From NCBI GenBank assembly GCA_045657265.1, contig JAZOSU010000010.1:3706-67705 (forward strand): a DNA stretch of 64,000 nt. The letters run 5' to 3'. Positions 1 to 9,683 of this stretch are shown one piece after another. The first letter of the stretch is position 1, and every line of letters starts with the position of its first letter. The notes beneath the pieces are model-generated. The model saw nothing but the letters and a program-made list of their open reading frames with translations, did no database searches and was not told the DNA's origin. The translations under genes were made by a program, and so were the position numbers. This DNA is from Eubacteriales bacterium (lineage in GTDB: Bacteria; Bacillota; Clostridia; Oscillospirales; QAKW01).

Positions 1-2000
1 CGTTTGATGCTTATATTATAGAATCTGAGTCACTGTTAGTTGATGAGTATGACGTAACTTCAAGGGGGACCGTTGAAAAAAGAGTCGGTGTGATTTCTGA
101 TTTGAACGCTCCTATAACTGAAGCTTACAATATGGTTTTTTCAGGAAGTTATGTAATTAGTGGTCATGCTAAAGTTGTTGTTACTGATGTAGGTAAACGT
201 GTTTACGTATCCAAAATTCATAAACAAAAAACATTCAATAAAAAATACGCGACGAAAATCACTGATTTTTCAAAGCTGTTACTTTTTGTTTTCTGTTTGC
301 TTGCTGTGGTGTTTACTGTAATTTGTTCATTTTTGTCAGGAAACTATGTTAATGCTATCAGTTCAATTTTAATATTTTTCTCATTACTATTTTCTGATTT
401 TCTCACTAAATATATTTTTATTTCTTTTTCTAATACTTTTCTTGGACTTTCTAAAGAAAAAATATATTTAAAAAATCCATCGGTTATTGAGAAAATAAAC
501 AATAGTGATTTAATTATTTTTAATCAGGATTCGATTTTTAAAAATGATATTTCTATTACCGGTTTTTCTGATTATAATAACCGTTTTTCAGATGTTGGTG
601 AAATTGGCAAAAATAATTTTGAGACTTTTGTTTATGCAGCACTTTGTTCTGAGAAAACAGATGATTACCGTAATTATTCATTTAATAAATCAATAATTAA
701 AATTCTTAAAAAAATTGGTATTGATTTTAAAGATATTGATTCAATGTGTCCTATGATTTCATATCTTGATGTTCCGTCTGAATTATATGAAATTTGTGGC
801 AGAGTTTACGATGGAAACAATCTTTTGATTGTTAAAGGTGATTTTAACAAGATTTTAGAATTGTGTTCTAAATCTAAAAACGATATACCCGAAGATGTTC
901 TGAATAAACTATACTCTGATTCCACTGAAGTGATTGGTGTTGCTATCAAAAACGTTGATATTATTCCAGATGATCTTTCTGAGCAAACTGATGCCTTTAC
1001 TTTGTTAGGTTTTATTTCTGTTAAAAAATCAATCAGAAAGGATACAGCTCAGAAAATTTCTGAATTACTTATCCGTGGATATAAAAGCGTTATTCTTTAT
1101 TCAGGTAATAAAATTTCAGCTGAATTCATATCTGAAAAGTTGGGTCTTAAATCATTCTCATATAACACCATAGACAATTTAAATAAGAATGATTTTGACT
1201 GCGGTTGTATAATTTACGATTATACGGGTGATGAACGCCGTTTGATATCTAAGATTACATCTTTTAATTTTAAATCTGTTTTTTGTGGTAGATTCAATAC
1301 GTTGAATCAGAAAGTTATTTATTTTGATTCTTTTGACTCAAGCGCTTATCATCAGAAAGAGTGTGATGTTGTTTGTAAGCCTTCGTTTGATAAGTATTTT
1401 AAAGTATTTAATTGTGTAGATAAGACGTACTCTTATATAAACTATATTTTTGAAAATATAATTACTTTTATTGCAATTTACGTTATTTGCGGTACTCTTT
1501 ACACTATTCTTTTTAAAAAAGTTTTATTTAACACTGCTTTATTATCACTTGTAACTTTTATTGCTTTATTAATTCCGTGTCTTTGTGTTTTATATTGCAG
1601 TAAATTCACAAGACTGTGTGATAACAAAAAATTTGCTTCCGAGCCGATACAGTATGCGAATATGATAAATGCAATGTTGATTACATTTTTCTTTATTGTT
1701 GCTATTGTTTTTTTGAAACTGATAAATAAATCAGATATTATTAGCGGTATTTTAGTTGTTGCTTTTGCAGCCTATTTACCATATTTACAACTGAAAAACA
1801 TCTTGAAATTAAACAATGTTTTATCTATTTTACCGTCAATCGTTTTAGGCATTTTGTTTATTTTGCCGATTTCAAACATTTTTGGTATACATGGATTTAA
1901 TTTTATTCATTTATTGATTTCGATTTGTCTTGGTGTATCTTTAAGATTTTTGATAAATAAGTTTAATAAAATTATTGTTAATAAAGGATCATTAATATGA
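1..2000 (+). CDS. Degenerate P2-type (Ca2+/cation) P-type ATPase-like membrane protein, 5'-truncated by the window; catalytic motifs lost
   Basis: Frame is open from nt 3 (FDAYIIESESLLVDEYDVTSRGTVEK...NMVFSGSYVISGHAKVVVTDVG), matching the P2 actuator-domain pattern. It also has a TM hairpin, N-domain LIVKGD (KGA), LLGFISVKKSIR (GMIDPPR) and about 6 C-terminal TM helices. DKTGT reads NQDSI (522-536), TGES reads TSRG and PEGL reads SDFL. Confidence 0.75.
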   Translation, partial: FDAYIIESESLLVDEYDVTSRGTVEKRVGVISDLNAPITEAYNMVFSGSYVISGHAKVVVTDVGKRVYVSKIHKQKTFNKKYATKITDFSKLLLFVFCLLAVVFTVICSFLSGNYVNAISSILIFFSLLFSDFLTKYIFISFSNTFLGLSKEKIYLKNPSVIEKINNSDLIIFNQDSIFKNDISITGFSDYNNRFSDVGEIGKNNFETFVYAALCSEKTDDYRNYSFNKSIIKILKKIGIDFKDIDSMCPMISYLDVPSELYEICGRVYDGNNLLIVKGDFNKILELCSKSKNDIPEDVLNKLYSDSTEVIGVAIKNVDIIPDDLSEQTDAFTLLGFISVKKSIRKDTAQKISELLIRGYKSVILYSGNKISAEFISEKLGLKSFSYNTIDNLNKNDFDCGCIIYDYTGDERRLISKITSFNFKSVFCGRFNTLNQKVIYFDSFDSSAYHQKECDVVCKPSFDKYFKVFNCVDKTYSYINYIFENIITFIAIYVICGTLYTILFKKVLFNTALLSLVTFIALLIPCLCVLYCSKFTRLCDNKKFASEPIQYANMINAMLITFFFIVAIVFLKLINKSDIISGILVVAFAAYLPYLQLKNILKLNNVLSILPSIVLGILFILPISNIFGIHGFNFIHLLISICLGVSLRFLINKFNKIIVNKGSLI

Positions 2001-2740
2001 TTGAAGAAAAAAGAAATGACGGATATATTTTTGGGAGAAATAATGTTATAGAAGCTCTTCGTTCAGATAGAGAAATTGATAAACTTTTTGTTGTTGATTC
2101 ATCTGGTGGTAGTTTATCAAAGATTATTTCTCTTGCATCAGAAAAGAGAATTCCTATAATAAGAATAAGTTCCCAAAAACTTGATTCCAAATTCCCAGGT
2201 GAGAATCATCAGGGGGTTGCTGCGATTGCAGCAGTAAAAGATTATTCTACTATTGATGACATCTTTGAACTTGCAAATTCACGAAATGAAAGACCTTTTA
2301 TTTTGATTGCTGATGAAATAGCTGATCCACACAATTTGGGTGCTATTATTAGATCAGCGGAGTGTTTCGGTGCGCATGGTGTTATTATTTCAAAAAGAAG
2401 AGCGGTAGGTCTTACTGCATCTGTAGAGAAAACAGCAGGAGGCGCTCTTAATTATATGCCTGTTGTTAAGGTTACAAATTTAGCTTCTACAGTTGAAGAA
2501 CTAAAAGAACGTGGAATTTGGGTTTATTGTTGTGATATGGACGGGGATAGAACGTATTTTGAAGAAAAATATGATACTTCTCTTGCTCTTATAGTTGGAA
2601 GTGAGGGTAAAGGAGTTTCTCCGCTACTAAAAAAGAAATGTGATTTTGTAGTTAACATTCCGATGAAAGGTAATGTTAGCTGTCTTAATGCTTCGGTTGC
2701 CGCAGCAGTTGTTATGCAGGAAATTGCTAAAAACAGATAA
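1997..2740 (+). CDS. rlmB: 23S rRNA (guanosine-2251-2'-O)-methyltransferase, TrmH/SpoU family
   Basis: IFGRNNVIEAL N-terminus, HQGVAA, DPHNLGAIIRSA, GSEGKG and CLNASVAAAV SPOUT motifs. Confidence 0.93.
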   Translation: MIEEKRNDGYIFGRNNVIEALRSDREIDKLFVVDSSGGSLSKIISLASEKRIPIIRISSQKLDSKFPGENHQGVAAIAAVKDYSTIDDIFELANSRNERPFILIADEIADPHNLGAIIRSAECFGAHGVIISKRRAVGLTASVEKTAGGALNYMPVVKVTNLASTVEELKERGIWVYCCDMDGDRTYFEEKYDTSLALIVGSEGKGVSPLLKKKCDFVVNIPMKGNVSCLNASVAAAVVMQEIAKNR

Positions 2741-2755
2741 TTGGGGATTTGGGCT

Positions 2756-4954
2756 ATGGATGAAAAATTTAATCTTGATGATTTAAAGCAAATGATTTCG
2801 GATTACGATACTCGTAAAACCGAATTCACTTTGGATGATATAATTAAAACCGAACAGGAAATTGAAGACATTAAGCCTTCAAATGAAATAAACAGTGATG
2901 TTATTAAACCGGATAGTGTTTCTATTACAGGGGCTTTTGAAGCTATCAGATCTGAAAAATCAAATCATTCAAATGATATTACAGTAAAATCGGTTGAGCC
3001 TCAGATCAATAAAGATTACGAAATTGAAGATGATAATATTGTAGAAAATGATGCTAAGCCTTCTGTTGAAATAGTTGCAGAAATTGAACCTAAACGCTAT
3101 TTCAATACAGAACAATTTGAATCTATTAAGAATAAAGAGTCAGTAGATATGAAAGAATCTATAGCTTCGTTTACCAAGGGTCTGGAAGAAGAGGACGACG
3201 GAGAAGAAGAGTATATCAATTCTTTTGATGAAACTGAAGAAATAGACGATTTTGAAACATTGGATGAAAGAGAAGATATTCTTTTAGATCTTAAAAAAAT
3301 GAATTCATCCGCTGCTTTTAAATCATCACTTACGTTTATTTTAACTCTTATTTCGGGTCTTATGTTTTTGGCTTTACAGCTTGGTGTCTCTGTACCGGGA
3401 CTTGCTATTACTTCCGGTTCTAAATTGTTTTTAACATTTGTTTTGTCGATTTCTGTTGTAGCATCTATAGTTAATATTAATTCTTTATTTAAAGGTTTAT
3501 TATCACTTGTAAAATTGAAATGTACTCCGGAAACAATGATTTTTCTTGCTTTTGTTTCCAATACTTTATTGAATCTTTTTTATCTTTTAGGAAATACAAG
3601 TTTTAATGGTGATTTTATTTCTTTCGATTTTGTTTATATGCTTCTTTTGATGTTTAATATTATGTCAAAGAAAATTTTAGCAAAAAACATACTTAAGAAC
3701 TTTATGATTGCTTCTTCAGAAGGTCAAAAAACAGTTGTAGACAGACCTGAAATGGAAGAAATTGCAAATGATATAATCCTTGAAACCGGCAATGGCGGAG
3801 ATATATTATATGCGACTAAGAGCAGATTTGTGACTGATTTTATACATAATAGTTTTAAAGATTTCGATATTTGCAGTAAACATTCTCCCTTTTATACTTT
3901 TTGTTGTGTTATAATTTTTGCTCTTTCGGTTCTTACATATTTTCTTACTAAAAACTTCGTTCATATGTTAGCATATTCTGCAGGAGCTTTTTGTGTTGTA
4001 ACACCGCTTTTACTTACGTTTTCTCAAGCTGTACCTATTTTTAACAATAGTAACAGAGCACGACGTTTTGGTGGCGCTATTGTAGGAAGTGAAAGTGCAT
4101 ATGCATTGGAAGATGCTCAGACTCTTATTGTTGATGATAGCGATGTTTTTAATGTTGCGTTAAACGGTATCCGTATGTTTGGAGATACAGAAATTGACGA
4201 ATGTATTTTGTATTTATGTTCTCTTTATAATACTGTAGGAGGTCCTCTTAAGAATTTATTTACTGATATGCTCAGTGAAAGTATTCCTTCCATCCCGAGA
4301 TGTGATGAAGTTTATTATCACGAGACCATGGGTTTTTCTTGTCTTATACATTCAAAGGTTTTTGTTGTGGGTAATAAGAATCTTATGAATCATTTTGGCA
4401 TTGAAGTTGATGATAGTGAGTTTGAGATCATTTATCAACAAAAATCAAAGAATGTTTTATTTGTTGCATACGATGGTAAATTAATGGGCGTATTCCTTTT
4501 GACTTATTCTTTGTCTCACGGTGTTTCTAAAGCTTTTTCACTTTTTGAAAACGATCAGATTAATGTTGCTATTGCAGAAAGAGATGCTAATATTACTACA
4601 TCGCTGTTATACAATAATTTTAAAACATCTGATAAATCACTGTTCTCTATTATGAATTTTAGAACAGCCAGAAACTGTTTTAGTAAATTTGAACTTAAAA
4701 ACAAAACTCCTTCTATTTTACTATCCAACACAGGTTTGAAGGGTATAGCAGCAGCTTTCCATGGTTGTAGGGCGATGCTTTTTGCGATGAAAGCAAATCA
4801 GGTTATTAAGACAATATCTTCCCTTATGGCGATAGTTTTGATTACATTTTTACTTGTGTTTTCTGCACCGTCTCTTTCATTGCCTATGCATATAATTGCA
4901 TATCAGCTACTTTGGTCTTTGCCTATACTTTTTGTATCTTTGTTTTCTAAATAA
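2756..4954 (+). CDS. Degenerate P1B-type (heavy-metal) ATPase-like membrane protein with long acidic N-terminal region
   Basis: ATG at 2756 behind GGGGA (ORF track starts at TTG 2741). About 180 aa of acidic, low-complexity N-terminus, several TM helices, then P1B-like segments: FCVVTPLLL (CPC helix), GGAIVGSESAYALEDAQTLIVDDSDVF (GILIKG..LE...TVVFDKTGT), GGPL (SEHPL), VVGNKNLM, LFVAYDGKLMGVF, and two C-terminal TMs. Confidence 0.7.
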   Translation: MDEKFNLDDLKQMISDYDTRKTEFTLDDIIKTEQEIEDIKPSNEINSDVIKPDSVSITGAFEAIRSEKSNHSNDITVKSVEPQINKDYEIEDDNIVENDAKPSVEIVAEIEPKRYFNTEQFESIKNKESVDMKESIASFTKGLEEEDDGEEEYINSFDETEEIDDFETLDEREDILLDLKKMNSSAAFKSSLTFILTLISGLMFLALQLGVSVPGLAITSGSKLFLTFVLSISVVASIVNINSLFKGLLSLVKLKCTPETMIFLAFVSNTLLNLFYLLGNTSFNGDFISFDFVYMLLLMFNIMSKKILAKNILKNFMIASSEGQKTVVDRPEMEEIANDIILETGNGGDILYATKSRFVTDFIHNSFKDFDICSKHSPFYTFCCVIIFALSVLTYFLTKNFVHMLAYSAGAFCVVTPLLLTFSQAVPIFNNSNRARRFGGAIVGSESAYALEDAQTLIVDDSDVFNVALNGIRMFGDTEIDECILYLCSLYNTVGGPLKNLFTDMLSESIPSIPRCDEVYYHETMGFSCLIHSKVFVVGNKNLMNHFGIEVDDSEFEIIYQQKSKNVLFVAYDGKLMGVFLLTYSLSHGVSKAFSLFENDQINVAIAERDANITTSLLYNNFKTSDKSLFSIMNFRTARNCFSKFELKNKTPSILLSNTGLKGIAAAFHGCRAMLFAMKANQVIKTISSLMAIVLITFLLVFSAPSLSLPMHIIAYQLLWSLPILFVSLFSK

Positions 4955-4993: not shown

Positions 4994-5294
4994 TTGTGGC
5001 ATGAAATGGAATCACACTATCCGGGGCGTTAGCGGTGCCTTGTACCTACAGTCCGCTATAGTAGGGGAGAATGCTTGACTGAGGATATTTCTTGGTGCGG
5101 CAAGCCGCAAACTGTGAATGTTGAGAAATAGGTTCGGCGCAATATCATGTTGTGAACCATGTCAGGCGGGGAACCGAGCAGCATTAAGCAAATTTTGGTA
5201 TGTGCCGCCGAGGTGCCTGTTTTGAGTTCATAGTTTGCTAAGCTCACATTGAGAGTATTCAAACCAAGCTGTGTGATTTCATCTCATGCCACAA
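4994..5294 (+). repeat. 24-bp inverted repeat (4994-5017 / 5271-5294) enclosing the SRP RNA; probable precursor processing stem
   Basis: ttgtggcatgaaatggaatcacac pairs with gtgtgatttcatctcatgccacaa: 22 Watson-Crick pairs, 1 G-U and 1 mismatch. A T7 run follows at 5296-5302. Confidence 0.85.
5018..5270 (+). ncRNA. ffs: Large bacterial signal recognition particle RNA (scRNA) with Alu domain; ends approximate
   Basis: Helix-8 motif GAACCATGTCAGG-CGG-GGAA-CCG-AGCAGC (about 5154-5182). The Alu domain has helix 3 (ggggcg/tgcctt), a UGU turn, helix 4 (cctac 5045-5049/gtagg 5061-5065) and loop-loop complementarity TAGCGG 5030-5035 / CCGCTA 5053-5058. Position upstream of dnaX-ebfC-recR matches Bacillus scr. 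Confidence 0.93.
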
Positions 5295-9607: not shown

Positions 9608-9683
9608 TGGAGCTACTGGTCGGACTTGAACCGATGACCTGCTGATTACGAATCAGCTGCTCTACCAACTGAGCTACAGTAGC
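9608..9683 (-). tRNA. tRNA-Thr (anticodon CGT)
   Basis: Reverse complement GCTACTGTAGCTCAGTTGGTAGAGCAGCTGATT-CGT-AATCAGCAGGTCATCGGTTCAAGTCCGACCAGTAGCTCCA: 76 nt, cloverleaf, encoded CCA. Confidence 0.96.

Follow-up and report, generated by a model that had tools for sequence, protein, structure and literature searches.

What are two proteins with the build of P-type ATPases doing on either side of the gene for a ribosomal RNA methyltransferase, when neither keeps the residues with which such pumps work? The question arises at one edge of a 64,000-nucleotide stretch of DNA, hereafter the window, which comes from a 1.56 Mb genome in 35 contigs (estimated 95% complete) of a Eubacteriales bacterium (GCA_045657265.1; contig JAZOSU010000010.1, positions 3,706 to 67,705, or G000:C10:3706-67705 in the coordinates that we use outside the window). 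P-type ATPases are among the best-studied membrane enzymes, and here two dead ones of different subfamilies, kept by selection, stand in one operon-like block around rlmB. We hold with high confidence that these two proteins, called A and B below, are independently derived, catalytically dead descendants of P-type ATPases, maintained by purifying selection in a cell that has five pumps beside them. Gene A derives from a P2A Ca-pump-like ancestor and gene B from a P1B heavy-metal-pump ancestor. The block is laid out as follows:

1..2000, + strand: gene A, P2-type pseudo-ATPase of 815 amino acids, of which residues 151-815 lie in the window (open reading frame, PF00122, AlphaFold2 model, Foldseek)
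1997..2740, + strand: rlmB, 23S rRNA Gm2251 2'-O-methyltransferase, 247 amino acids (TIGR00186, PF00588, PF08032)
2756..4954, + strand: gene B, P1B-type pseudo-ATPase, 732 amino acids from the ATG (AlphaFold2 model, Foldseek, VIA, family profile)
5012..5276, + strand: signal recognition particle (SRP) RNA, which closes the block in genus g1, the window's genus (RF01854, 170.5 bits)

An earlier sequence-only reading had the joints of this block right, as the frame of gene A ends at 2000 with a TGA that overlaps the rlmB ATG (ATGA), and between the TAA of rlmB and the ATG of gene B at 2756 stand 15 nt that include GGGGA. It had also taken gene A to be a stop-free frame, which it is, and to span 1-2000, which is incomplete, as the window edge cuts the gene; the frame 3..2000 is open at its 5' edge and the start lies at G000:C10:3258, 448 nt 5' of the window. 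Counted from an in-frame TTG at 2741 the frame of gene B has 737 amino acids, and the ATG start is supported by the N-termini of its relatives, which read M-[SD]-[DE]-K-F-[ND]-L-D. RlmB itself is a member of its family, with a TIGR00186 equivalog score of 245.3 bits (cut-off 160.15) and both the SpoU methylase domain (PF00588, 142.5 bits) and the substrate-binding domain (PF08032, 64.5 bits) present. After the SRP RNA come dnaX and then ybaB. Scanning the region for promoters gave 38 promoter-like sites against 34.2 expected from shuffles, which is no excess, and terminator-like sites numbered 6 against 2.8 expected, none of them convincing between the genes of the block; the best promoter-like site of the region is just 5' of the SRP RNA. 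Just 5' of the window, a GtrA-like small membrane ORF of 146 amino acids (L003:2831-3271) extends 14 nt past the start of gene A; as the g1 loci have such an ORF 5' of A, where the g2 loci described below have none, this transcription unit may comprise four genes.

Two pump folds and their lost motifs

Matches of both models by Foldseek, and of B by VIA, uphold the earlier view that the proteins derive from different subfamilies. By fold and descent A and B are members of the P-type superfamily; as working enzymes they are not, having neither DKTGT, TGE(S) nor GDGxND. For A, a complete P2-type ATPase fold is predicted, beginning with the usual N-terminal 'cation ATPase N' helix of a full-length protein: the AlphaFold2 model (pLDDT 86.0, pTM 0.82) matches LMCA1 (6zhh, E 4.5e-32) and SPCA1 (8iwr, TMq 0.79), with SERCA, Na,K-ATPase and MgtA among the further Foldseek matches. 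The only Pfam match of A is the A-domain model PF00122, which is above cut-off at 36.1 bits for the part in the window and 71.9 bits in the genome scan. PF00702, PF00689 and PF13246, each present in every true pump that was found in the word-seeded search with A, were not detected in A itself, and the NCBIfam Mg/Ca pump models score 25-41 bits against cut-offs of 610-975. With the P2A Ca2+-ATPases (Listeria LMCA1, SERCA, SPCA1) A shares the N-terminal helix, the A-domain barrel, ten predicted transmembrane helices and the P and N domains, but unlike them it carries Gln for the phospho-Asp, lacks TGES, GDGxND and PEGLP, and has its M5/M6 Ca2+ ligands replaced, the place of N-x-x-T-D in M6 reading T-x-x-A-L. 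These losses were read from an alignment with four true P2 pumps, in which TGES, PEGLP, DKTGT and GDGxND are absent from A and from nine close relatives (32-43% identity); DKTGT is absent from 19 of 19 A-family rows from g1 and g2, including nine more distant forms without any motif. In that alignment the former motifs of A fall at:

51..71, + strand: former TGES loop of the A-domain, now DVTSRGT (TGES to TSRG), residues 167-173
390..404, + strand: former PEGLP ion-site motif of M4, now FSDFL, residues 280-284
519..539, + strand: former DKTGT, now FNQDSIF (DKTGT to NQDSI, with Gln at the Asp place), residues 323-329
1284..1307, + strand: former GDGxND hinge, now CGRFNTLN, residues 578-585

No Pfam model matches B, PF00403 (HMA) included, and at 28.5 bits against a cut-off of 346.25 for TIGR01525 it falls outside the NCBIfam P1B family. 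The AlphaFold2 model of B, built with 62 diverse relatives (pLDDT 82.5, pTM 0.74), has residues 1-165 disordered, followed by eight long predicted transmembrane helices and by P and N domains; of the A-domain, model and alignment leave only a cytoplasmic insert some 55 residues long, from which the TGE loop is missing. The earlier description of B as intact with its membrane segments kept is thus right for the eight helices and wrong for the A-domain. Foldseek ranks P1B pumps first (LpCopA 4bbj, E 2.9e-18), and VIA-align gives Z 19.4 for ATP7B and LpCopA, 18.4 for ZntA, 16.8 for CadA, 13.1 for KdpB and about 11 for P2/P3 pumps. The N-domain superposes on that of ATP7A with Z 14.5 and an rmsd of 2.1 A over 119 residues, and positions 384-657 of the B family profile match the CopA-like pump of the same genome (E 8.6e-33). 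B is therefore modelled as a P1B (copper-pump) fold with a shortened A-domain. Like the P1B pumps (Legionella CopA 3rfu/4bbj, ATP7B, ZntA, CadA) it has the eight-helix core with two extra N-terminal helices, and P and N domains of the P1B heavy-metal type; unlike them it has no CPC, DKTGT, HP or GDGxND, and an acidic disordered arm replaces the HMA metal-binding domain. Its features, from the alignment and, for the N-domain and the TGDN remnant, from conservation over 62 rows, are:

2756..3250, + strand: acidic disordered N-terminal arm, residues 1-165, with FNLDDL and FTLDDII (pLDDT, motif count)
3995..4012, + strand: M4, CPC metal site now VVTPLL (CPC to TPL, the Pro alone kept)
4130..4150, + strand: former DKTGT, now VDDSDVF (DKTGT to DDSDV)
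4235..4378, + strand: N-domain, SEHPL now VGGPL
4574..4591, + strand: TGDN remnant AERDAN, with the adjacent GDGxND stretch deleted

In M5/M6 the ligands are likewise replaced, with SS for YN and QLLWS for MSFSS (MxxSS). The motif losses of B are common to its close relatives and to the 62-sequence sample of the wider family, and within that sample what is kept is selective. P417 of M4 is present in 55 of 62 members, D610 of the TGDN remnant in 61, and of the N-domain glycines G526 in 60 and G539 in all 62; L498 and F502 are also nearly invariant, and the His of the N-domain HP dipeptide has become Gly in 48 rows. At the old active site D460 is found in 30 members, D461 in 36 and D463 in 40 (with Glu in 14 more), so that no catalytic Asp is invariant over the 62 sequences. 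The DDSDV stretch had also been considered as a HAD-phosphatase-like DxDx[TV] motif, a reading that was dropped because its Asp positions all vary within the family.

The N-terminal arm of B has pLDDT below 50 over most of residues 32-160, and carries two copies of a short motif, FNLDDL at nt 2768-2785 and FTLDDII at nt 2825-2845. The pattern F-x-[LIVM]-[DE]-[DE]-[ILV]-[LIMV] occurs in 36 of 177 B-family proteins, where shuffled sequences would give 2.9; in each case it falls within residues 1-120, several families of the order have it, and the peptide looks like a short protein-docking motif. The length of the arm is highly variable, B proteins ranging from 690 to 1169 amino acids in the sampled loci with the pump-derived part constant. 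Loci that illustrate this range are:

L056:7509-11018, - strand: gene B
L048:8525-11530, + strand: gene B
L058:6953-9883, - strand: gene B

Close relatives of A and of B are also without catalytic motifs, and the alignments with true pumps, in which DKTGT, TGE, GDGxND and the membrane ion-binding residues are all lost, bear out the claim that both proteins are catalytically dead. From these replacements neither would be expected to run the phospho-aspartate (Post-Albers) cycle or to bind the ancestral cation, and so neither is probably a pump. Full-text literature searches, with subscription journals outside their coverage, found no description of pseudo-pumps among the P-type ATPases, and none was met with when the 2023 review PMC10654040 was searched by keyword.

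Intact pumps in the same genome and selection on A and B

If A and B do not pump, what does? Five ORFs of the window's genome have both DKTGT and GDGxND:

Contig C5: P2A-like pump of 870 amino acids, with TGES and PEGLP
Further ORF: pump of 855 amino acids, with PEGLP
G000:C31:5965-8415: CopA-like P1B pump of 816 amino acids, with CPC
Two further P1B pumps of 640 and 606 amino acids, with CPC

With five intact pumps present, the dead A and B are extra copies and not the cell's only pumps. The nearest paralogue of A in the genome is an intact P2A-type pump (195 bits to the A profile), and the presence of intact paralogues of both subfamilies invites the explanation that A and B, in the manner of many pseudoenzymes, are regulatory subunits which tune the working pumps, A acting with the 870-residue Ca-pump-like protein of C5 and B with the 816-residue CopA-like protein of C31. 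Both proteins keep their membrane domains, and dimeric MgtA entries (8uy7, 8uy8) are among the fold matches. We nevertheless consider such a role unlikely, in that neither gene is linked to a working pump, B being linked instead to rlmB in every one of 15 further loci, and the metallochaperone/HMA part of B has given way to an unrelated acidic arm.

Selection was measured as Nei-Gojobori dN/dS on A, rlmB and B in 32 pairs of loci with RlmB at least 80% identical, pairs below this having been dropped beforehand. Five pairs were unsaturated (dS 0.49-1.10); each of the other 27 had at least one gene whose dS exceeded 1.9 or could not be computed. The five usable pairs gave:

L029/L030: A 0.119, RlmB 0.081, B 0.096
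L038/L041: A 0.150, RlmB 0.030, B 0.073
L038/L042: A 0.146, RlmB 0.039, B 0.071
L041/L042: A 0.169, RlmB 0.038, B 0.062
L044/L045: A 0.100, RlmB 0.023, B 0.052

Three of these pairs share the loci L038, L041 and L042 and are therefore not independent. The values for A span 0.100-0.169, those for B 0.052-0.096 and those for RlmB 0.023-0.081, and purifying selection is plain in both A and B, being the looser in A. Simple decay, with one or both genes being pseudogenes, would fit the disappearance of all catalytic motifs, the fast divergence of A and the half-degenerate look of a sister-genus form. Values of 0.05-0.17 are nowhere near 1, the level that would have refuted the sequence-only reading, and mean that neither gene is decaying, in agreement with that reading; moreover, wherever a locus extends to the gene its frame is full length, even where identity has dropped to 17-30%, B is a single-copy gene almost throughout its order (below), and both models fold with high confidence. 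We regard decay as extremely improbable.

Distribution of B, descent of A and linkage to rlmB

Is the block then one module of this lineage, as had been proposed? The distribution of B does not support this. Gene B is an old, single-copy and near-universal gene of this order of gut Clostridia, standing immediately 3' of rlmB. Word seeds brought up 27 close relatives, at 45-67% identity, together with a single distant one, and none has a precomputed Pfam domain. Such records of B as have names are gut metagenome-assembled genomes from animals and humans, under the labels Eubacteriales bacterium or Clostridia bacterium. When the B profile was run on 1.84 billion cluster representatives, 3278 proteins scored E<=1e-3, and 1487 of them reached E<=1e-30; lengths among the 150 best run from 439 to 1311 amino acids, with most of the profile matched in most of them, and of 11 sampled representatives ten have no Pfam match and one has PF00702 below cut-off. 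In the ESM Atlas the matches are only unnamed or automatically named clusters. Among 300 scored genomes sampled from the class, full-length matches (250-811 bits) are confined to the 11 genomes of the window's order, those outside it giving at best partial matches of no more than 135 bits at about positions 384-661, the same pattern as is given by the window genome's own CopA-like pump. Within the order, exactly one match at E<=1e-55 was found in 115 of 121 sampled genomes (97 of 102 genomes of good quality), and at least one in each of the 30 families sampled. Thus B represents a family of at least 1487 cluster representatives for which Pfam has no model, and its size and near-universality as a single copy point to a membrane role that these abundant gut bacteria have conserved.

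The gene rlmB lies directly 5' of B on the same strand in all 15 further loci, which come from ten families of the order. Because this position is invariable it implies that the two genes would be co-expressed. Of these loci 12 lie outside the window's family, and all 12 have the pair rlmB-B but lack any A-like gene for about 7 kb around; B therefore works without A.

On the other side of B, a g2-like locus has directly after it a paralogue of EF-G without the catalytic His of DxPGH (DVPGN; L041:7775-9859). The window's genome has the same paralogue, 64% identical and with DTPGF, at G000:C24:8429-10489, outside the window and unlinked from B. ORFs of about 680-710 amino acids follow B in many other loci of g2, g3 and the wider order, the identity as an EF-G paralogue having been read at L041 only.

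Gene A, by comparison, is a pseudo-pump of younger date that has been found in the window's family only. The word-seeded search with A gave ten close relatives (one of them partial, 658 amino acids) and then, from E 7e-24, true pumps. A profile that included the distant forms has full-length matches (676-991 bits) in 5 of the 121 genomes of the order, all from the window's family (g1 and g2), and all its other matches cover only about positions 1-323 in ORFs of 860-930 amino acids, as ordinary pumps do. Two of the full-length matches were marked with one or two stops inside; their open frames of 737 and 752 amino acids are full length for g2, which is why we read these stops as probably terminal. 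Linkage, where A is present, recurs as had been expected: the order is A-rlmB-B-dnaX in seven of seven g1 loci that reach upstream, with a truncated A at a contig edge in one more, and an A-like ORF of 698-751 amino acids, rlmB and B are consecutive in 14 of 14 g2-like loci that reach upstream, a fifteenth starting at rlmB. The g2 forms of A have no motif left and are 17-19% identical to the window's A, against about 30% for B between g1 and g2.

This arrangement, with genes overlapping or nearly touching in g1 and g2, is what an obligate heteromeric membrane module of A and B would predict. Such a module seems to us quite improbable, since B is widespread without A and the two cannot then be an obligate pair, and the divergence of the two proteins between g1 and g2 is very different; as worded, the proposal of one module of the lineage is not supported by the counts of B and A given above.

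The 15 wider loci contain an A-like ORF only in the three from g3, which belongs to the window's own family. There, counterparts of 871-873 amino acids stand 5' of rlmB-B with one small opposite-strand ORF between them (3 of 3 loci), and score 244-284 bits across the whole A profile. Their motif places read:

g3 locus L048 (G013): CSDKTGTLT at the DKTG site, TGKP at the TGES place, TGDVVSD at the GDGxND place
g3 locus L061 (G015): CVDKTGILT at the DKTG site, TSEN at the TGES place, TGESVDD at the GDGxND place
g3 locus L062 (G019): CVDKTGVLT at the DKTG site, SDAT at the TGES place, TGNKASD at the GDGxND place

PEGL survives among these only in L062, and the string TGES in the protein of L061 belongs to its GDGxND-place stretch and not to the A-domain. 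With DKTG kept and TGES and GDGxND lost, the g3 form looks like an intermediate stage. We read the three forms as one Ca-pump paralogue lineage that lost its motifs stepwise 5' of rlmB-B, a reading that rests on gene position more than on the tree: in a quick tree the g3 proteins fall among the ordinary P2A pumps of the order, while the g1 and g2 forms are joined on branches of 1.5-1.7 substitutions per site, a join that may be long-branch attraction. The locus in this light offers a natural series from pump to pseudoenzyme, with intact, half-degenerate and fully dead members.

Two further degenerate P2-type proteins, from other families of the order, are not beside rlmB-B. One, of 858 amino acids, has DKTGI and neither TGES nor GDGxND (L063; G180:C23:11000-16000); the other, of 856 amino acids, has no motif and a very long branch (L064; G432:C22:361500-366500). 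Pumps may have decayed to pseudo-pumps repeatedly in the order, or else A may be one member of a paralogue line that is older.

Possible functions of the dead pumps

All pump residues have been lost and selection persists, which means that A and B do some non-pumping job. In having lost catalytic residues and kept a fold under purifying selection they are like pseudokinases and iRhoms, pseudoenzymes which keep their folds for scaffolding or regulation. We tentatively favour the idea that A and B are likewise non-catalytic membrane scaffolds or adaptors, the likeliest of the roles considered here though one to which we give somewhat less than even weight; it is favoured by the loss of canonical phosphorylation and cation binding, the kept core, the arm motif, the position beside rlmB and the EF-G neighbour. 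The eight-helix membrane core of B and its shell of P and N domains would form a platform, from which the acidic disordered arm, with the conserved F-x-L-D-D-I-L at its tip, would tether a cytosolic partner. Being tightly coupled to rlmB, B would be expressed at the level set for a ribosome-biogenesis gene, and A would be a lineage-specific addition to the rlmB-B transcription unit. Taken whole, as dead descendants under selection together with this mechanism, the explanation falls just short of an even chance in our estimate.

Several points weigh against it. Linkage to rlmB may be historical only, and the orthology of the g1, g2 and g3 forms of A rests on gene position, the g3 proteins lying among ordinary pumps in the quick tree. 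Since A evolves fast, as its identity between g1 and g2 attests, the constraint on it may be little beyond that of its fold. The acidic cluster D460/D461/D463 of B, together with D610 and the N-domain glycines, could mean a residual ligand site; indeed its kept membrane core, N-domain shape, invariant glycines and single Asp suggest either a structural role or a remodelled ligand site.

The last of these points leads to the explanation that A and B are still transporters or enzymes by some other mechanism, acting as a passive channel or carrier or through a ligand-binding or phosphatase-like site. The conservation of P417, D610, G526 and G539 and of acidic residues at the DKTGT place of B would fit such an activity, as would the g3 form of A, which keeps DKTG and in one genome both Mg-binding hinge Asp positions. 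It is, however, improbable in our view, as neither protein retains any known cation ligand of M4-M6, and B has no invariant acidic residue where the active site was, a deletion of the HAD motif IV region and a truncated A-domain.

Returning to scaffolds, one may ask what B would hold. A speculative extension, which we would call a long shot, is that B anchors a ribosome- or translation-linked membrane module of gut Clostridia, with the tip of the arm docking RlmB or the EF-G paralogue and with A recruited in the window's family; if true, ribosome maturation or a translation factor would thereby be linked to the membrane. Co-folding of B with RlmB gave a score of 0.00 against a mark of 0.32, a result that counts neither for nor against binding.

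Elsewhere in the window, one tRNA gene (67.4 bits) runs against the direction of its neighbours:

9611-9683, - strand: tRNA gene

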